A DNA stretch of 64,000 nucleotides from a phage, in the sequence record OZ317122.1, one strand, 5' to 3'. This document shows positions 1-62,572 of this stretch, piece after piece. Numbering within the stretch: the stretch's first letter is position 1; each line of letters starts with the position of its first letter. The notes under the pieces were generated by a model. It was not told where the DNA came from and made no database searches. It saw only the letters and a list, made by a program, of their open reading frames with translations. Both the position numbers and the translations under genes were made by a program.

Positions 1-11
1 AATTTTCCTTA

Positions 12-2189
12 TTAGGCCGCAAGGGCCTTCATAGTTTTAGCGATTTGAGAAACTTCATCATCACTTAAAGAGTTGCGATATCCGATGAAGTCGGAAACAA
101 TACGGAATTTCTTGGTAAACTCAGCAACCATTTTATCACTGTTTTTTGAAGCATTATTTGATAATACATCAAAAAGATTAGTTACTGTCCAGATGTCATG
201 ACCGATGGTATCTTTTCCACCATTAAAATATACACCGCGCAATGAACTAACTATATTAGCGAGTCGTGTATATTCTTCAGAAACTTCATCTGTACTGAAG
301 TACTTCATCATAAAATCTAGTTCAGGATACTTGATAATTTTATCAATATATCGTTGAGCTGAACTTGAATAACCTACGTACTTATCATAATCTACATCAT
401 CAAAAGCATCTACATATAAATCACGCAGAGTTTCAAAAATACATTGGCACTGACCGAGTTCTTTTACCTTTTTCTGCAAAAGCGGACGAATAACATAAAA
501 CTCATTAATGCCAATAAGATTAGCCATACGAATCAAAATATTCATAGATGGATGACAAAGAGATGTAGTACCATCCATAGAGAAAATATCAGAACGATGC
601 ATATACGCTACATACCCAGTAATTTCATCTGCTTCTGATGTGAGCGTAAATAATTCCTCTTTTTCCCAGCGCCCGTCTTTAATTTCAAACTTAAATGCTG
701 TAGCAGCTTTAGGACGAGGAGCTTTACTTTTAACTACCTTTGGAATATAGCTTTTAACTAAAGCTTCAATTTCTGACAAATAATGAATGTTAACTTCATC
801 ACTTTCAAACATCGCCATAATATCAGGAAGCAAATCAATCTGCGATTCTACTTCTGGATTAATAAACAGAAGGCGTTCGTTGTGATGAATATTCAAAGTG
901 TTATTAAATTCACTATCATCTAATGCACGTGCTAATCCACGGACAATATTAACACGATTTTTAATATTATCAATAACGATATTAATTTTTGTTGTATTAA
1001 TACCAAACAGACGATAACTTGATGCAACGGCTGAAGTTTCATGACTTTGCTTAATGCGTTTCAGTCGAGGGTCAAGATTTACTTCATACACAACTCCCGC
1101 GTTGCATAACTTACTGTCAGGTTCAAACATGCTCTGCATCTTTTTATATGACAGATTTTTAGTCGTGAATTTGACTGAATTACTAATCATATAATCTCGA
1201 GCAGAATACCCCATCTTCATCAATTCACGATATGTGTGACGGGGAGATGTAGATTCTTTAAATCGTTTTACATCTTCATTAAATGCTTTCTCACTAAGCT
1301 CTTTAACTCGTTCAATAATATTTTTACGAGTACGATCATCCAGTGAAAGAGCCTCGCGAGATGGAGCAATATCAAGTGAACCCATTGGAAACTTAATGTA
1401 ATTCACTTCATTGCGAATGCTTAGCCAGTTACGGTCTCTAATAACACCATCGATAGGATAAACAATACCGCCATAGATAGCATATAATCCACCACGATCT
1501 GGCCAGTATCTTTCTGGATTTACGCCATAATAATCATCAAAATCCGGAAAATAATCAATTTCGCGGTCAAGACCATTAATGATAGCCAAATCTTTGAACG
1601 GTCGCATGATATAAGAAACTTCATAAGCAAAGTTTCTAAAGTCTTTTTCTTCAACTGGAACTACAATTTCAATACCAGTTTTATCGTCTGGACCCATTTC
1701 CTTTACGAATGTAGGTTTAATCTGCGGACCATCACCATCCATGTAAGCTACATAACCACGAATTTCACCTTTATGATACGAAGTAATACTAAACGTATCA
1801 GTATAACTAAACGGAGATTTAGAACCTAAACCAAATCCGCCAATAAAGTCATTAGATTCAGCTTTAGATGAACTGAAGTATGAATTATACAACCCAGGAG
1901 AATTATCATCACCCTGAATATCAAAATCACTCATACCCGGACCAAAATCTCGACAAACAAATCGCGGGTCTAATCGTCCTGGAACTTGAATGATAAATTT
2001 TTCAGGATTTCCATTGAGAGCATGGGCATCAATCATGTTAGTAATTAATTCACGGACCACTGCGCGAATCTTGTTTGTATACAAATCAGATGATAGAATT
2101 TTAAATACTTTAGGATTTGCTGCGATGCTAAATGCTTTTGATTTAGAACCATTGCCAAGAATTGTTTCTTTTTCAGTGGTGATAATCAT
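12..2189 (-). CDS. rIIA: rIIA protein (lysis inhibition / exclusion-sensitive membrane-associated protein)
   Basis: 725 aa ORF, N-terminus [16 protein letters not shown] matches remembered T4 rIIA; size identical to T4 rIIA. Confidence 0.9.
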
Positions 2190-40849: not shown

Positions 40850-41105
40850 TGTAAACTGATTTTTTCAACTTTCTTACTTCACCACGTAATTGACGATTCA
40901 ATTCATTCTTAACCTCTGAATCAACACCTCGCATACGTCGCCATTTATCTGAGCGAAAAATGTTTTCAACCATATCTTTATGACTTACACCATCAGGAGC
41001 TTTACGCTTTCCGAAATAGTCATAATCACGCACTTTTAAGTCTTTACGACGATACGTTTTACCCATGGAGTTTAATTTCCTTAGCAACTGAACTAAATGC
41101 AGCAC
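40773..41105 (-). CDS. hypothetical basic protein
   Basis: 110 aa ORF; 5' part overlaps neighbour, start uncertain. Confidence 0.4.
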   Translation of the reverse strand: MLHLVQLLRKLNSMGKTYRRKDLKVRDYDYFGKRKAPDGVSHKDMVENIFRSDKWRRMRGVDSEVKNELNRQLRGEVRKLKKSVYIDDDFDYNISQRVAKRKSNECYRYS

Positions 41106-41241
41106 GATCGCAAATCATGCGTTTATGTAACTTGAGTATAATATAGCAAACTTCAAAACTATTTACATGAGTAACACGAACAGCATTACCATTAATGAGA
41201 TAATACTGTCCCTTTTTAATTTCTTTATCAACCATAACCAT
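41059..41241 (-). CDS. hypothetical protein
   Basis: 60 aa ORF downstream of an early promoter at about 41265-41300. Confidence 0.45.
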   Translation of the reverse strand: MVMVDKEIKKGQYYLINGNAVRVTHVNSFEVCYIILKLHKRMICDRAAFSSVAKEIKLHG

Positions 41242-41399
41242 ATCAATTCCTCAAAGGCAATTCATATGTTAATAATACCACAGTTTGAGCTCGTTGTAAA
41301 CAACTTTGTGAAAATTATTTTAGGGAATGATAAGAAGGGAACGATAGCTTAGAATGGTAATATACAGAATGTGAGAAAGAAGGACCCAGAGGGCCCGTC

Positions 41400-41723
41400 T
41401 TAGTCTTCTATGATATCTCTATCATATCCAAGTGAAATGAGAGTTTCTTTGAAGTGTTTAATGTTCTTTTGTCTAGAATCATTAATGAAAATGACTGGAT
41501 AACGAATGTTAAGAGATGTGAATCCAGCGCGTTTAGCAAGAGATACAATCAGCGGACGATCATACTCAATCTTACCGTTATTTGTAAGAACTTTATAGAA
41601 AGTAAAAGGAGCATTGAGCTCCTTTAGAAGTTTTGTAACTGATTGACATCCAGGACAACGACCTACTTCTTCGGGGATGCCATAGATTTCAATCTTATTC
41701 TTTAAGTTCGAGTTTTGTTCCAC
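41400..41723 (-). CDS. glutaredoxin-like protein (NrdH-like), start uncertain
   Basis: CPGC active site in KIEIYGIPEEVGRCPGCQSV; track ORF 41400..41852 is over-extended into the upstream gene. Confidence 0.5.
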   Translation of the reverse strand: MEQNSNLKNKIEIYGIPEEVGRCPGCQSVTKLLKELNAPFTFYKVLTNNGKIEYDRPLIVSLAKRAGFTSLNIRYPVIFINDSRQKNIKHFKETLISLGYDRDIIED

Positions 41724-42006
41724 GAGAAATAATTCCTTGATAAGCCCAGTATGGCGGGTTAACAGAATCCTCACCAGAGTTTTCTTCAGGAAAATAAACC
41801 TGGATAACGAAGCCGGATTCATCAAAGGTGAAATAAGTAGTAGGCAGTTCACCTAACAAATCGGCACGAGCGTTGATTTCTTCGAGGTCTTGTTCACGTC
41901 CAGCCCAGAAGCTTGGGTTCAGACTACATTCATAGAAATAATAGTCATTACCGAACATATCAAAACCATTCCAACTCTCTACTACATACCGCTCAAAACT
42001 AATCAT
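41695..42006 (-). CDS. hypothetical protein
   Basis: 103 aa ORF with TAATTATG junction. Confidence 0.5.
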   Translation of the reverse strand: MISFERYVVESWNGFDMFGNDYYFYECSLNPSFWAGREQDLEEINARADLLGELPTTYFTFDESGFVIQVYFPEENSGEDSVNPPYWAYQGIISRGTKLELKE

Positions 42007-42008
42007 AA

Positions 42009-42224
42009 TTAAGCCTTTTTATCAAGAACAGCATTCAGCTTGTTAGTAATTTTATCCAGACGCTCATTAAACTCACTAGAAGATAATCCCTTTTCTGGAG
42101 AAATTAAACTAATCACGAAAAATATAGCAATAAAAGGAATAAGGAAAATAGCTCCAACTGCCATAAACAGAAAGAATGTTACAGTTGTAAGAAAATCAGC
42201 TAAACCTTTACGAAATTTATACAT
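42009..42224 (-). CDS. small membrane protein
   Basis: 71 aa, hydrophobic core. Confidence 0.5.
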   Translation of the reverse strand: MYKFRKGLADFLTTVTFFLFMAVGAIFLIPFIAIFFVISLISPEKGLSSSEFNERLDKITNKLNAVLDKKA

Positions 42225-42339
42225 ATTTTACCCTTAATTAATTAACCAAGCATTGATAAGCACTAAACTATATTGGGAATAAAATTCTGGACCAAAATGA
42301 AAAATCATATCATTTATAGTATCCATAATGTAATTCAGT

Positions 42340-42810
42340 TTAATCATGTTTCCACACCCCATCGGTATTTGACCAAAGTCGCTGATTATCTGATCCTCGC
42401 CACAGCTTTTTAGTCGGAAGATTTTTCTCATACTTCCCATCAATAATAACATCAACATATTTAAGCATTTCTAGCTGTTTAATATCTTCAAACTTATATC
42501 CTGTCCACAACCAAATGCTTTTATTGGGATAAAGATTTTTAATAGTTTGAACCACAGAGTGAATCACGTCTCTGTTATCAGGATAAAGAGGGTCTCCTCC
42601 AGTTATAGTTAATCCTTCTATATAATCATTATTCAAACATTCAATTAATTGTTCTAGTGTTTCACCAGTGAATGGAACGCCATTTCTAGCGTTCCATGTT
42701 GATTTATTATAACACCCTTCACATTTATGCAAACAACCTGTAACGAAAAGAACGACCCTGCATCCAGGGCCATTCACAAAATCGCAAGGATAAAATCTAT
42801 CATAATTCAT
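42340..42810 (-). CDS. nrdG: anaerobic ribonucleotide reductase activating protein (radical SAM)
   Basis: 156 aa; CxxxCxxC cluster GCLHKCEGC. Confidence 0.9.
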   Translation of the reverse strand: MNYDRFYPCDFVNGPGCRVVLFVTGCLHKCEGCYNKSTWNARNGVPFTGETLEQLIECLNNDYIEGLTITGGDPLYPDNRDVIHSVVQTIKNLYPNKSIWLWTGYKFEDIKQLEMLKYVDVIIDGKYEKNLPTKKLWRGSDNQRLWSNTDGVWKHD

Positions 42811-44679
42811 TGGTGTTTAACCCTATGCATGATTTCTTTATTTTTGCCGAGATTAAATCCACGTTCGTTCGGATTTCCCAAATAACCACAAGTTCTTCTT
42901 ATTGTGTTCATCTTTTTAGGATCAGTTTCTCCACAAATAGAACAAACAAACCCGTTTTCAGTAGGAGTCATTTCATGGGTACTTCCACACGTAAAACATT
43001 TATCTACTGGCATGTTAACACCAAAATAATCTAAATGTTGTGCAGCATAATCCCAGACAGCCTCAAGACCTTTTAGGTTATTTTTCATATCAGGAAGTTC
43101 AACATAAGAAATGTGACCACCTGTCGCAATGAAATGATATGGCGCTTCACGAGAAATTTTTTCAAACGGAGTAATATTTTCTTCTACTGAAACGTGGAAA
43201 CTATTAGTGTACCAGCCTTTATCGGTAACATCTTTTACACTTCCATATTTTTCTGTATCAAGTTTACAGAAGCGATAACAAAGGTTTTCAGCAGGAGTCG
43301 AATATAAACTAAAAGCAAATCCAGTTCTTTCAGTCCACTGTTTAAGATGAGCATTCATTTTAGTTAAAATTTCTTGTCCAATATCACGACCGACAAGAAT
43401 ATTCAATTCGTGAATACCAATGTATCCTAGGGACACTGAACTTCTACCATTTTTAAATAACTCAATTATATCGTCATCAGGTTTAAGACGAACCCCGAAT
43501 GCACCTTCTTGGTAAAGAATAGGAGCAACAGTCGCTTTAACTCCTTTTAAGGAACTAATTCTACACATCAAGGCTTCAAAGCACAGATCCATTCGTTCAT
43601 TAAATAGCTCAACAAATTTCTGTTCATTGAACTGTGTTCCAATATAAGAATCTAATGCGATACGAGGAAGATTCAGTGTTACAACACCGAGATTATTACG
43701 TCCATCAAGAATTTCATTACCAGTCGAATCTTTCCATACGCTCAAGAAACTACGGCAGCCCATCGGAGAAACAGGAATAGATGAACCAGTGATAGCTTTA
43801 TTGTTCTTAGCTGAAATAATATCAGGATACATCCTTTTGCTTGCACACTCTAGAGCAAGCTGCTTAATATCATAGTTCGGATCGTCTTTATAAAGATTAA
43901 CACCTTCTTCAACGAACATAACAAGCTTAGGGAAAATAGGAGTTATCCCATCACGACCGAGACCTTTAATACGATTTTTCAGAATTGCTTTCTGAATCAT
44001 TCGTTCAGTCCAGTCAGTTCCCGTACCAAATGTAATTGTTACAAAAGGTGTTTGCCCGTTTGAACTAAAGAGAGTATTTACTTCATATTCATAAGCTTGA
44101 AATGCATCGTATACGTCTTTTTCTGTTTTAGATTGAGCATAATTCAACGCATCGGCGATTTGCCATTTTTCTGCATCCTCAATATGTTTTGCATAGGTGC
44201 GTTTAACATAAGGAGAAAGTACTTTATCTACATTCGCAAAAGTCGTTCCGCCGTATTGGTGAGAAGCAACCTGTGCAGTAATTTGTGCCATAATTGCAGT
44301 AGCAACGCCAATTGATTTAGGAGTTTCAATCTGTGCATTACCTAGCTTAAATCCGTTTTCAAGCATTCCTTTTAAATCTACTAAACAACAATTAGTAAAT
44401 GGAAGAGCAGGGGAATAATCAATATCATGGAAATGAATAATTCCGCTTTCATGCGCTTTCATAATAAAAGTAATCAATATCATGGAAATGAATAATTCCG
44501 CTTTCATGCGCTTTCATAATAAAAGACGGGACCATATTTTTGGCAATGTGTTTAGACACAATACCAGCCATAAGGTCCCGTTGAGTTGGAAAAACACGAG
44601 AATCTTTATTAGCATTCTCGTTTAAAAGGTCTTTATTAGTTTTATGAATCAATCCTTCAATTTCTTTTTCAATTGTCAT
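42807..44679 (-). pseudogene. nrdD: anaerobic ribonucleotide reductase nrdD, frameshifted by a 55-bp tandem duplication
   Basis: track ORFs 44449..44679 (76 aa) and 42807..44507 (566 aa) both encode FIMKAHESGIIHFHDIDY; removing one repeat copy restores an 1818-nt ORF with C-terminal RTCGY glycyl-radical motif. Confidence 0.85.
44416..44525. repeat. perfect 55-bp tandem duplication (2 copies)
   Basis: 44416-44470 equals 44471-44525: taatcaatatcatggaaatgaataattccgctttcatgcgctttcataataaaag. Confidence 0.95.
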
Positions 44680-45149
44680 TTTAAACTCTTTCTAAGCTGC
44701 TTCTTAAATGAAGCTATTAACTGTGTTTTGGTGTCAGATTCATTATATTCAAATCCTCTTTGAAGCATCTCGGCCATCATTTCCTCTTTTCCTAAACGAG
44801 AAAATTCCTTTGATTTATCTCCAACAAAGTTAGGGTGAATATTATTTTGGGTGTAATCGGATTTTAAATAAGTAAGTAAATTTTCTAACCATTCAAGATA
44901 ATCAACACCTTGTCCCTTTAAGCCAGAACGATTAAATTTATGCTTCATTTGACCTTCTGCGGCATTGCAGAGATTACAAAGCAATCCACGTATCTTTCCT
45001 GCTTTTGGTCCATTTAATTCATGGTCATGGTCGAGGTGATTAGCTTGAACATCAGGATTTAGTTCTCGTTGGCAAATTAAGCATTTACCGTTTTGTGCAT
45101 TATAAAATTTTTGTTTTTCTTCTTTGTATAATTTGCCAGTCAATAACAT
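44676..45149 (-). CDS. 49: endonuclease VII (Holliday junction resolvase)
   Basis: 157 aa; zinc-binding CLIC...HLDHDH...CNLCN motifs. Confidence 0.9.
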   Translation of the reverse strand: MLLTGKLYKEEKQKFYNAQNGKCLICQRELNPDVQANHLDHDHELNGPKAGKIRGLLCNLCNAAEGQMKHKFNRSGLKGQGVDYLEWLENLLTYLKSDYTQNNIHPNFVGDKSKEFSRLGKEEMMAEMLQRGFEYNESDTKTQLIASFKKQLRKSLK

Positions 45150-45155
45150 AATAAA

Positions 45156-45180
45156 ACCCTTACCTTAAATAGATAAGGGT
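45156..45180 (-). promoter_or_regulatory. hairpin immediately upstream of gene 49 start (may sequester its SD)
   Basis: accctta-N11-taagggt 7-bp stem; on the mRNA the AAGGGU arm sits 4 nt before the AUG. Confidence 0.4.
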
Positions 45181-45191
45181 ATTTATTATTT

Positions 45192-45368
45192 TTAAGTATT
45201 GTAAAACATTCGATGCAATCGTTTATACTGTCGAATCATCTTTTTAGTAGGACGAGAATAGGTTCCTACGCAAGTGGTCATATGAGGGTCCGTAGAATGT
45301 CCTTTAATAAAAAGTTTCCAAACCTTACCGCCATTTAACTTTTCAGTATAAACCAATTCGGTTTTCAT
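45192..45368 (-). CDS. small protein with C-terminus repeated in the next gene
   Basis: 58 aa by hand translation; C-terminus IRQYKRLHRMFYNT. Confidence 0.4.
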   Translation of the reverse strand: MKTELVYTEKLNGGKVWKLFIKGHSTDPHMTTCVGTYSRPTKKMIRQYKRLHRMFYNT

Positions 45369-45404
45369 TAAAATGTCCTGTCAGAAAAAGAATTTTGAGT
45401 TTTT

Positions 45405-45890
45405 TCAAGTATTGTAAAACATTTGATGCAATCGCTTATATTGCCGAATCTTTTGGTCAGAAAAAGAAATTTGAGTTTCAAGCCATTCAATGTACTCTGC
45501 GGCAGCTTGCATCAGGTTACCTTCATAGCCATCGTTATTTTCTTGCGCAGCTAATTTAGCTAATGCATATGAAATACGTTCACCTTGAAAAGCGGCTTTA
45601 GGCTTCTGAACATCTTGGCTAGTTCTCTCTACAACTTCCTCGATTTCACCATTTTCAACGGATTCAGTATTCCACAAACACCAATACGTAATTGGCTTAT
45701 CATAGATGTTAATAATTTTTCCATCAGAAAGTTCAATTTCAATAATTCCAGTGTCAGGCTCTATATCATCTTCACATTCTTTTGCAAGTTCACGAACTTT
45801 AAAGACAGTACCTGCACTAAGTTCCGGCCAGTAATTACACAGCCCTGTATCAGCACGATTAATTCTAAACCACTTATCTACTGTAATCAT
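45405..45890 (-). CDS. Pin-like protein (protease inhibitor position)
   Basis: 161 aa from MITVDKWF; track ORF starts at upstream TTG; C-terminus IRQYKRLHQMFYNT. Confidence 0.55.
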   Translation of the reverse strand: MITVDKWFRINRADTGLCNYWPELSAGTVFKVRELAKECEDDIEPDTGIIEIELSDGKIINIYDKPITYWCLWNTESVENGEIEEVVERTSQDVQKPKAAFQGERISYALAKLAAQENNDGYEGNLMQAAAEYIEWLETQISFSDQKIRQYKRLHQMFYNT

Positions 45891-46185
45891 GTCCCATCTC
45901 CATATCAATTAAGTCATTTATCGTTGGTTCATTATATACTGTTTCTTCATCAGTGTAAACCGGTTCTTCCGGCTCTGGCTCTACAGTTTCCCATCTAGCC
46001 GCCCACCAAGGTTTAACCCCGAAGCTTATTAAGTTCTTCATAATCAATCCAGGATTCTAATCCTGATGGCAAATCAGATTCAATTTCCCAAAGAAGCTCT
46101 TCAATTTTCTGAAGACGATCTAGTTCTTCGGCTGGAATAGTAACCATTGACGGAGCTCGTGATACATTAATATCGTAAATCATAT

Positions 46186-46401
46186 TTACCCCAATTTAAC
46201 CATACAATCGCCGTATTTCCACTTAGAAATAGACTTTTCACCATTAGAATAATAAACTTCGAGTTTAGCACGATTATTTTTAATTTGAATAACCTTGGCT
46301 GTCATCAAAGTTCCATACCCATAATAAACTGCAACTTCATCACCTACATATACCGCGCTTCCGCGGTAATCATGAATATAGTCAGTTCCTTCGAGCATCA
46401 T
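46186..46401 (-). CDS. hypothetical protein
   Basis: 71 aa ORF. Confidence 0.5.
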   Translation of the reverse strand: MMLEGTDYIHDYRGSAVYVGDEVAVYYGYGTLMTAKVIQIKNNRAKLEVYYSNGEKSISKWKYGDCMVKLG

Positions 46402-46661
46402 TTAAAATATTCTCGCAGTTGGTCAAATCCACCAATATGACTTCCATCAGGAGCAAATACCTGAGGCATTGTCAAGCCGATTTGAGTATCACGACCTAGT
46501 TTAGTCAGAAGCTCAGCGATTTTCTCATCATCAAAAACACCTTTTTCCGGCATAATGTTGATAAATTCAAACGGCTGTTTCTTCACAGTCAAAAGACGTT
46601 TTGCATTATCGCAATACACACATTTATGGATGTTGCTATCATAACCATATACTTTAAACAT
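46398..46661 (-). CDS. nrdC: thioredoxin/glutaredoxin NrdC
   Basis: 87 aa; CVYC active site; MFKVYGYDSNIHKCVYCDNAKRLL. Confidence 0.9.
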   Translation of the reverse strand: MFKVYGYDSNIHKCVYCDNAKRLLTVKKQPFEFINIMPEKGVFDDEKIAELLTKLGRDTQIGLTMPQVFAPDGSHIGGFDQLREYFK

Positions 46662-46662
46662 A

Positions 46663-46920
46663 TTATTCCTTAATTCCTAGTACTTGTTTAAAAGTCTCGT
46701 CGTAATCAAGACTTTGGCCCGTTTGTTCTTTATGTTTGTATATAATATCACTTACTTCTGATAGCATATTTTTATATGAACGAGTTAAAGCAGATTTAAG
46801 CACGCTGTATCTATCAGGAAATTTACCATGTTCATTATAATAAGCTATTGCTAATTCACGGACTGCCTTTTCAGCAGTCTCCATATATTCTTTACGCTTT
46901 GTCATTTTCTTCTCGGTCAA
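46663..46920 (-). CDS. hypothetical protein
   Basis: 85 aa ORF. Confidence 0.5.
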
Positions 46921-47206
46921 ATCGGTGTTTACAATGGCGACATTTATAACGAAGAATACTAGTCTGCCAATGAATCAATTGAACCTGTTCAGTTCCACAT
47001 TCAGGGCAATTAGGAACGTTTTTAGAAGCCCTTTCACGACGTTCAACCATGACCATTACAGAATCCCAATTAACAGGAGGGCTATAATCATCACAACCAT
47101 AAATCTTTCCACGCATTTCCATATCATCTTCCTCACCAGCCATAATAATTTTAATTAGACTAGAATTACTTGAAGCTGCAATGTCTTCTAATAGACGCTT
47201 TTTCAT
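46892..47206 (-). CDS. zinc-ribbon protein
   Basis: 104 aa; CPECG...CRHCKH. Confidence 0.5.
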
Positions 47207-48132
47207 TTCAATACCTCAATAGCATTACGTAAACCATTTGCTTTTGCATTAAGAGCTTTTAACAATTTGGTGTGTTCTGCAATTTGGGCTTCAACTTCAA
47301 TCAAACGGGCATTGAGATATTCACGTTCTTCACTCAGATTATCAACCTTTTCTACTTTAGGCTCTTTTACAACTGTCTTATATGTATTAGGGTTCTTCAG
47401 TTTAATTAGAATGCGTGAACTGTATAACATTGAACCATTATCTTCGGTTTCGTCATACATTTCCACTACGTCCATAATTTTTAACATCATGCGGAGTTTA
47501 TAAGACAACGAACGAATAGTTTTGTTGTGCTTATTAATTTCTTTAGCTGTCATGGTGCCAAGATTACGTGAGTAATAATAAGGAACCTGGATATTAATTA
47601 ATACTGATGAACCACCTGGCTTGTGTGTTACTTCATCAGCAATAACCCAGTCCTTAACATGAACTGTATTTGTACGGTCATCGCCCGCGGTAAATAGTTT
47701 GCGAGCATGCTTAAAAAGCATATTCACTTGGTCATTGAATTGACAAGCAAATTTATCAGCAAATTTAGTTTCAGGAATGGTAGAAAACCAATCAGCCAAA
47801 TGAGTCTTTTTAACATCATTAACAATAGTAAATTCAACCAAATCGGTTATAGATGTCTCAGATTTAATGAAGCTCGGCTTCATAAAGTTTTTAATGTTCT
47901 CATGAGCTACAGTAGAAGATAACATACGAGAACGTTTAAACCATTCAAGCAAATTGCCTAACGAATGAGAATAAGCGTTTTGAGTATCTTTACAGATATG
48001 ATTTTCCTGACCAACATATTGAAGGAAATCACGAAGAATATTATTGATTACTGCTCTGTGCCCGATCTGATAATTACGGTGTTTAGTAATAAGACTGTCA
48101 AAATAATCAATATAATGTTTACGAGTTTTCAT
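47203..48132 (-). CDS. hypothetical protein with C-terminal coiled coil
   Basis: 309 aa. Confidence 0.55.
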   Translation of the reverse strand: MKTRKHYIDYFDSLITKHRNYQIGHRAVINNILRDFLQYVGQENHICKDTQNAYSHSLGNLLEWFKRSRMLSSTVAHENIKNFMKPSFIKSETSITDLVEFTIVNDVKKTHLADWFSTIPETKFADKFACQFNDQVNMLFKHARKLFTAGDDRTNTVHVKDWVIADEVTHKPGGSSVLINIQVPYYYSRNLGTMTAKEINKHNKTIRSLSYKLRMMLKIMDVVEMYDETEDNGSMLYSSRILIKLKNPNTYKTVVKEPKVEKVDNLSEEREYLNARLIEVEAQIAEHTKLLKALNAKANGLRNAIEVLK

Positions 48133-48184
48133 ATTCTTCTCACTTGGTTAATGGTTTATACTCCGAGCCATCCTTGGCTTTAAA

Positions 48185-49186
48185 TTACTTAATTAACTGT
48201 AAAGCTTGTTCAAGACGATCAAGACGATTAACGGATTCTTCCCAAATCTTTTTAGCCTGCTCATATTCTTTCTGCGCTTTATTAGAAATTTCTAGAACTT
48301 CTTTATAAGCTTTTTCTAGTGCAATAACTTCTGGACGAATTTCTACTGGTTCAGGCGAATCGTCAAGACATTCCATTAGTTCCTCAAGGGTAGTTTCTTC
48401 TTTAGGAGTATTCACAATTTCATCACATTTTTGTTGGTAAATTTCTTTATCAGTCGGTGAGTACGCACACTTTACTTCACGGAGACTAACTACAATTTTA
48501 TATCCTTCCCAACCGCATATATTCTTAAAAGGATAAGTATGAATATTTTCTACTGTTTCCATACAAAGTAATGCGGTCTCTAACTGACGAGTTATATCAC
48601 TAGCAATTGAGAAAAATTTATTAATGTTCTTTTGATTAGCTTCTGGTGTAAAAAATTCATAATTCACAAAAATAGCTGCTTTATTTTTATCAAGTTCATA
48701 TTCTTTTATGATAATCATATCAGAAGCCAAAGGATGAATTTGACGATAATCGCCATAACATAATTTAGAAGCTGATTTTAGAATTTGCTTCTTGAAAAGT
48801 CTAAAATTACTAATCCAACGACGAGTAAAAATATTCTCAGGGTCTTCTTTATTATTAAGATGATAAGAATTAACATCACCGAACCAACTGTATCCTACTA
48901 CATCTTTGGTTCGTTTAATTTCTTTCCCAAAATTACTAAGAATATCTTGATTAACTAAATATGAAAGAAGACGAGAACCTTTAAAAGTTTCCTTAATATC
49001 ATCTTTATATTCGCGACTAGAAATTTTATGAACTTCATGAATAAATTTGCTTGAAGAAACAATACTTGCATCAATATTATTGAGCCATTGATTGATAATG
49101 GAAAGAACGCTATTTTGGCCAAACATCGGTATAGCTTTATCATCAATAACGCTATTGAATGATTTGATATATTCGTTACGAGTCAT
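48185..49186 (-). CDS. hypothetical protein with C-terminal coiled coil
   Basis: about 333 aa from MTRNEYIKSF with GAGGAG SD; an early promoter lies inside the track N-terminal extension. Confidence 0.55.
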   Translation of the reverse strand: MTRNEYIKSFNSVIDDKAIPMFGQNSVLSIINQWLNNIDASIVSSSKFIHEVHKISSREYKDDIKETFKGSRLLSYLVNQDILSNFGKEIKRTKDVVGYSWFGDVNSYHLNNKEDPENIFTRRWISNFRLFKKQILKSASKLCYGDYRQIHPLASDMIIIKEYELDKNKAAIFVNYEFFTPEANQKNINKFFSIASDITRQLETALLCMETVENIHTYPFKNICGWEGYKIVVSLREVKCAYSPTDKEIYQQKCDEIVNTPKEETTLEELMECLDDSPEPVEIRPEVIALEKAYKEVLEISNKAQKEYEQAKKIWEESVNRLDRLEQALQLIK

Positions 49187-52532: not shown

Positions 52533-52623
52533 TTACCAGTTTAATTCTAGTCATCTTTTTGATGGCAGTCCCATATAATCTATTTCTGAACTGCCTTTTT
52601 GTCTTAGAAGGCCTCTTATGAAT

Positions 52624-62032: not shown

Positions 62033-62210
62033 CTAAACGAATAGGTTCATGAATGCCATATCCCTGAACAGAAATTTCTGTCGTAGGATAAATTCCACTA
62101 ATATCACCCATATTCCACGCTTCATTAAATTGCTGTTCGCCTGAATTACTAAACCACTCGGCGAAAGCATTTAGCACATCTTCAGAACCTTCAATAATTA
62201 TCTTTGCCAT
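61989..62210 (-). CDS. hypothetical protein
   Basis: 73 aa ORF. Confidence 0.45.
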   Translation of the reverse strand: MAKIIIEGSEDVLNAFAEWFSNSGEQQFNEAWNMGDISGIYPTTEISVQGYGIHEPIRLVEYDLCTGEEVKYD

Positions 62211-62572
62211 TACAAACTCTCGGTGAAGGTACGAGCGATAACGTCGCGCTGCTGTTCCGGAGTCAGAGAGTTAAAGCGAACTGCATAACCGGATACACGG
62301 ATGGTCAGCTGCGGATATTTTTCCGGATGCTTAACTGCATCTTCCAGAGTTTCACGACGCAGAACGTTAACGTTCAGGTGTTGACCACCTTCAATTTTAA
62401 CTGTAGGCTGTTGCTCAATTTCAATTTCACGGGCATGCAAACCATAGAAAATTTCTGGGTCTACAAAAGAGTCCTCTTTAAAGGTTTTAGAGACAATAAT
62501 TCGTGCTTGAATACCATCTTCAAAATAAATAGTACCTTTATGTGTGCCTTCAAGAATTTGATATGCTTTCAT
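62210..62572 (-). CDS. autonomous glycyl radical cofactor (GrcA/YfiD-like)
   Basis: 120 aa; C-terminal RVSGYAVRF glycyl-radical motif; locally high GC. Confidence 0.75.

Follow-up and report, generated by a model that had tools for sequence, protein, structure and literature searches.

Is the anaerobic ribonucleotide reductase gene of this phage really broken, or is it broken only in the record? The window, the whole stretch of 64,000 nucleotides analysed from phage sequence record OZ317122.1, carries gene 49, nrdD and nrdG in that order on the minus strand, and all three are confirmed by Pfam. As written, nrdD is split into two open reading frames (ORFs) by a perfect 55-bp tandem duplication. 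The original prediction, made from the sequence alone, had described this arrangement and offered three explanations for it: a real mutation, a reversible duplication or an assembly artefact. Its reading of the sequence stands. Its biological lead is the less favoured part, and the artefact, listed last of the three, is the option that most likely applies. Specifically, it is highly probable that the duplication arose during assembly or finishing, as a de Bruijn k-mer overlap that was left untrimmed, and that it is not a mutation of the phage.

The repeat itself is not in doubt. Direct comparison finds the two copies (Table 1) identical at 55/55 bp, as had been claimed, and TRF describes the same repeat with a period of 55, 2.0 copies, 100 % matches and a score of 220. 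The period-55 identity stops abruptly, with 0 bp of extension past either border of 44416-44525. The flanks read GGGGAA/TAATC on one side and AAAAG/ACGGG on the other (the slash marks the border), and microhomology or a short direct repeat is absent from the borders of the duplication (0 bp either side). This is the sole tandem repeat with a score of at least 60 in the 64-kb window. Among perfect tandem duplications with a period of 20-300 it is again the only one in the window, and 289 kb from related loci yielded none. We estimate the probability of an exact adjacent 55-bp repeat arising by chance in 64 kb to be negligible, of the order of 4^-55 x 64000.

A smaller repeat is found inside the larger one. 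Each 55-bp copy contains a native 10-bp near-tandem repeat (CGCTTTCATG x1.9), at 44444-44462 and 44499-44517. It codes for M-K-A-H-E-S, is the same in most aligned relatives and is not located at the borders of the 55-bp duplication.

The effect on nrdD follows from the length of the unit. Because 55 = 54 + 1, the reading frame shifts after Tyr70. The shorter ORF has the authentic residues 1-70 followed by FYYESA and a stop codon, whereas in the longer ORF authentic NrdD sequence restarts at F52-I-M-K-A-H... (Table 1). This ORF layout agrees with the frame break first proposed. Deleting one 55-bp copy and recomputing the ORF likewise returned the predicted single nrdD gene of 1818 nt and 605 codons, and nrdG downstream overlaps the nrdD stop codon. 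The NRDD and glycyl-radical domains, which are distributed over two ORFs as written, are contained in one polypeptide after the removal of one copy. The repaired protein matches PF13597 from end to end (E = 1.9e-171) and PF01228 with E = 1.2e-25. It is identical to the crystallised T4 NrdD (1H78) at 601/605 residues, and of the four mismatches one is due to G580A in the crystal entry. Besides the 55-bp duplication, nrdD has no decay and no other lesion.

The obvious point of reference is the class III anaerobic ribonucleotide reductase of T4 (NrdD, 1H78/1HK8) together with NrdG. Once repaired, the window's NrdD has the same length of 605 aa and the same domains, and in T4, too, the genes run 49-nrdD-nrdG and overlap at their start and stop codons. 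The difference is that the window gene, as written, is split into ORFs of 76 aa and 566 aa.

Table 1. Features of the nrdD locus and of the start of the window (window coordinates; a slash marks the junction between copies).
Feature	Position	Strand	Remarks
Window start (AATTTTCCTTATTAGGCCGC...)	1..60	+	Aligns from T4 reference position 1, the conventional rIIA origin
nrdG, activase, radical SAM, intact	42340..42810	-	Start overlaps nrdD stop (ATGA); Pfam
nrdD 3' fragment, 566 aa, re-encodes FIMKAHESGIIHFHDIDY	42807..44507	-	PF13597 E = 3.5e-163; Gly_radical E = 1.1e-25
Copy 1 of 55-bp unit (TAATCAATATCATGGAAATGAATAATTCCGCTTTCATGCGCTTTCATAATAAAAG)	44416..44470		Would be one original contig end if artefactual
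nrdD 5' fragment, 76 aa, ends ...HFHDIDYFYYESA	44449..44679	-	PF13597 positions 1-53, E = 4.5e-12
Novel junction 32-mer (GCTTTCATAATAAAAG/TAATCAATATCATGGA)	44455..44486		Matched nowhere else searched
Copy 2 of 55-bp unit, 100 % identical to copy 1	44471..44525		Would be the opposite original contig end if artefactual
Gene 49, endonuclease VII, intact	44676..45149	-	Upstream of nrdD, overlaps nrdD start; Pfam

Does this arrangement occur in any other phage? The junction between the copies was searched for with a 32-bp query; a 70-bp query could not separate one piece from two. The 32-mer had 0 matches in 50,697 phage records, and the exact junction had 0 matches in IMG/VR, JGI metagenome contigs and GTDB genomes. 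A longer query of 451 bp matched 737 phage records. Among the matches listed, all span 396 bp, which is 55 bp less than the query, and each of these therefore has a single copy of the unit. A comparison set was also assembled from 20 independent contigs that encode exactly the window's gp49 or NrdG, and in 20/20 of them nrdD is either intact or interrupted only by mobile-element ORFs. The most telling sequences are a metagenome scaffold (L023) and an NCBI assembly (L026). Their nrdD is the window's allele apart from 3-4 mismatches over 1818 nt, and in both the 55-mer occurs once and the 605-aa ORF is unbroken.

The window belongs to a Tequatrovirus, being ~98 % identical over 20 kb to ASO78A, ESCO58 and T2/T6-like phages. 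The loci that encode exactly its gp49 are at most 97.8 % identical to it over ~20 kb, and the closest of those that encode its NrdG are 99.2-99.4 % identical over ~8.5 kb. Product look-ups returned no exact match on record to the 76-aa fragment or to gp43. The first base of the window corresponds in alignments to position 1 of T4 NC_000866, and the same holds for other T4-ordered records. T4-type genomes are packaged by a headful mechanism and are circularly permuted, with no fixed end. A record of such a genome that begins at the conventional rIIA origin must have been rotated, manually or by a tool, after its assembly, and the ends of the original contig are therefore internal to the record. 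In other words, the genome has demonstrably been re-opened at the T4 origin after assembly. Four deposited relatives were inspected for leftover terminal overlaps and had none, but 3/4 are rotated to the terminase gene and this sample is too small to inform.

How might an assembler have produced the duplication? SPAdes has a default largest k of 55 for reads shorter than 150 nt. Short reads of a circularly permuted, T4-like genome would assemble as a "circular" path, which a de Bruijn assembler would print as a linear contig with its first k bases repeated at the end. With SPAdes and a largest k of 55, the result would be an exact, perfect 55-bp repeat at an arbitrary site, in this case within nrdD. 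If the depositor then cut the sequence at rIIA, the T4 origin, and joined the old ends with neither copy of the overlap removed, the joined ends would become an internal, perfect 55-bp tandem duplication. The nrdD frame would be broken on paper only, and the phage itself would keep an intact 605-aa nrdD coupled to nrdG. The repeat with its length and borders, the rotation, the lack of the junction elsewhere and the intact near-identical alleles are direct observations. From them we infer that the assembler used was of this kind, that its k was 55 and that the trimming step was omitted.

Such overlaps have precedents. Assemblers open circular templates at a random site, so that each end of the contig carries the same k-length repeat, and the authors of CheckV found that terminal repeats pile up at exactly 55, 77 and 99 bp (Extended Data Fig. 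3; PMC8116208). According to the work on COBRA, the end overlap of metaSPAdes contigs equals maxK (PMC10914622). Philipson et al. routinely trimmed artificial overlaps of 127 bp from SPAdes phage contigs (PMC5923482). The closest parallel is the T4-like phage 132, for which SPAdes 3.12 gave a contig with 55-bp overlapping ends that were trimmed before the genome was reopened at the T4 start (PMC8483715). If the same contig had been reopened and that trim skipped, the structure seen in the window would be the result.

The likeness to such an "artefactual DTR" of SPAdes or metaSPAdes is close. There is a perfect direct repeat, its length is the default k of 55 and it occupies an arbitrary position in a circularly permuted phage genome. 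The phenomenon has been documented in viral contigs (PMC8116208), in phage isolates (PMC5923482) and, at 55 bp, in a T4-like phage (PMC8483715). However, one aspect differs: the copies in the window lie side by side inside the record, whereas a DTR would occupy its ends. This is the outcome expected of rotation without trimming, which is what we infer for this record. An artefact is favoured because the length is exactly 55, a default SPAdes k, at 100 % identity, because borders without microhomology are expected of an arbitrary cut, because the junction is found nowhere else and near-identical alleles are intact and single-copy, and because the genome has been rotated to the T4 origin.

A separate feature of the region is a mosaic boundary within nrdD. 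With one repeat copy removed, L023 matches the window at 100 % over 41071-44342, and ASO78A/ESCO58 match it at 100 % over 44254-48543, the latter end lying at ~48598 in window coordinates. The boundary is sharp, with the window 3-7 % divergent from each partner on its other side. The two blocks of complete identity place a crossover in 44254-44342, which is 74-162 bp from the repeat. This proximity could suggest a recombination-associated event or a place where contigs from a mixed sample were joined. Mosaic blocks of 3-4 kb are normal in T-even phages. With blocks of that size we estimate that the chance of lying so close to a boundary is ~10 %, and the crossover is treated here as a coincidence and a side observation.

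What if the duplication is real after all? In this scenario the phage stock acquired its 55-bp tandem duplication very recently. The duplication would have inactivated nrdD, or left at most an N-terminally truncated product, and been tolerated as class III ribonucleotide reductase is unneeded in aerobic growth; recombination between the copies could revert it. T4 generates duplications, and it can do without nrdD when cultured aerobically in the laboratory, so that a real knockout would be tolerated and could persist in a stock. The sequence as written does have both the duplication and the frame break. Intact nrdG and gene 49, and an nrdD without further lesion, are as expected of a fresh event, a very recent event would also be perfect and unique, and the site is close to the point where an L023-like block meets an ASO78A-like block. 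Nevertheless, a real duplication is unlikely. Its length would have to coincide with a default assembler k, although nothing would make a biological event favour 55 over other lengths, and we put the prior for exactly 55 at ~1 % or less. The lack of microhomology is atypical of slipped-strand or unequal-crossover events, no second example of the junction turned up in phage records, IMG/VR, JGI metagenomes or GTDB, and the genome was re-opened after it was assembled. The spontaneous tandem-duplication frameshifts of T4 (rII, lysozyme) resemble the window case in that a short duplication changes the frame of a gene that is non-essential in the laboratory. However, the classical T4 duplications usually have short direct repeats at their borders, span only a few bases or reach kilobase scale, whereas the one in the window has no microhomology and the length of an assembler parameter. 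If the duplication were real, reinitiation at Met55 could give a product without residues 1-54: the Met55 ATG in the second copy as read along the minus strand (44462-44460) is 11 nt upstream of the TGA of the 76-aa fragment (44451-44449). No Shine-Dalgarno-like sequence precedes this internal ATG and termination-reinitiation has no conservation behind it either, so it is not supported. The fuller proposal, that a fresh and real duplication beside the crossover at 44254-44342 switches off the anaerobic ribonucleotide reductase and can be reverted by recombination between its copies, is decidedly improbable. If true, the lesion would turn an accessory gene of nucleotide metabolism on and off in a simple, reversible way.

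Two further explanations deserve consideration, of which one keeps the assembly origin but changes its details. Perhaps two contigs from a fragmented or mixed-phage assembly shared a 55-bp graph-node overlap and were joined by hand without trimming, in which case the flanks could belong to two co-sequenced T4-like phages. De Bruijn contigs share maxK overlaps at their ends (PMC10914622), and the identity of the window does switch from L023 to ASO78A/ESCO58 close to the repeat. An observation that does not fit is the position of the crossover (44254-44342), which differs from that of the duplicated 55-mer (44416-44470). From the positions of the variants we derive that the graph node for the L023 and ASO78A-ESCO58 haplotypes would be 44389-44443. 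The bases beside the 55-bp unit are invariant in close relatives, and a mixed sample should leave several joints, whereas the 64-kb window has one. With the crossover 74-162 bp away and the unit-flanking bases non-polymorphic, a mixed-sample joint is not favoured, and this origin is very improbable. The other explanation is translational. Programmed ribosomal frameshifting by +1, with TAC-TTT-T (44472-44466) as one candidate site, would fuse the ORFs into an NrdD with an 18-residue internal duplication. There is a run of four T in the ORF overlap, and a +1 slip of tRNA-Phe there would presumably reach the correct frame. However, the T-run consists of native S-F-I codons present in every single-copy relative, the slip site has no stimulatory element and no rare or stop codon, and the product would need to accommodate an insertion within a highly conserved region. 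The arrangement is unique to this record, relatives having a single ORF, so that nothing is conserved. Lacking both conservation and a stimulator, programmed frameshifting has a negligible probability. The original prediction had also considered translation of both ORFs as one product by frameshifting, and nothing supports it.

The untrimmed overlap thus remains the preferred explanation, and the main value of the finding is as a data-quality flag. Should the duplication be artefactual, a familiar and intact gene is wrongly annotated in the record as a pseudogene or as two fragments, and the recorded genome has 55 bp in excess. Automated counts of pseudogenes, gene content or indels among T4-like phages would then take over the error. 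A simple screening rule can be proposed: where a circular or permuted genome has been rotated and contains a perfect internal tandem duplication of 55, 77, 99 or 127 bp, an untrimmed overlap is to be presumed until reads indicate otherwise. A real duplication would be nothing more unusual than a loss-of-function mutation in a gene that is conditionally dispensable.

Some minor features of the window and its relatives were also recorded. T4 nrdD itself carries a group I intron. The window's nrdD allele (42807-44679) is without an intron or homing-endonuclease insertion, and relatives show three different insertions around nrdD. A GIY-YIG/NUMOD1 ORF splits nrdD after codon 181 in two loci (L005/L024), a 273-aa NUMOD3 ORF is located between gene 49 and nrdD in two others (L008/L029), and an HNH/NUMOD3 ORF of 210-276 aa separates nrdD from nrdG in a further two (L002/L020). 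Elsewhere in the window, an indel listing against three relatives (L003, L006 and L009) over ~20 kb includes a 1-bp insertion at 52570. It is intergenic, two minus-strand ORFs leaving a gap there at 52533-52623, and breaks no frame. Finally, a glycyl-radical gene had been predicted at 62210-62572, and a C-terminal Gly_radical domain (PF01228, E = 2.5e-18) is indeed found there. The gene is a free-standing, apparently intact 120-aa ORF on the minus strand whose product ends in ...RVSGYAVRF.... It resembles the spare glycyl-radical module of the GrcA/YfiD type described for T4 Y06I.
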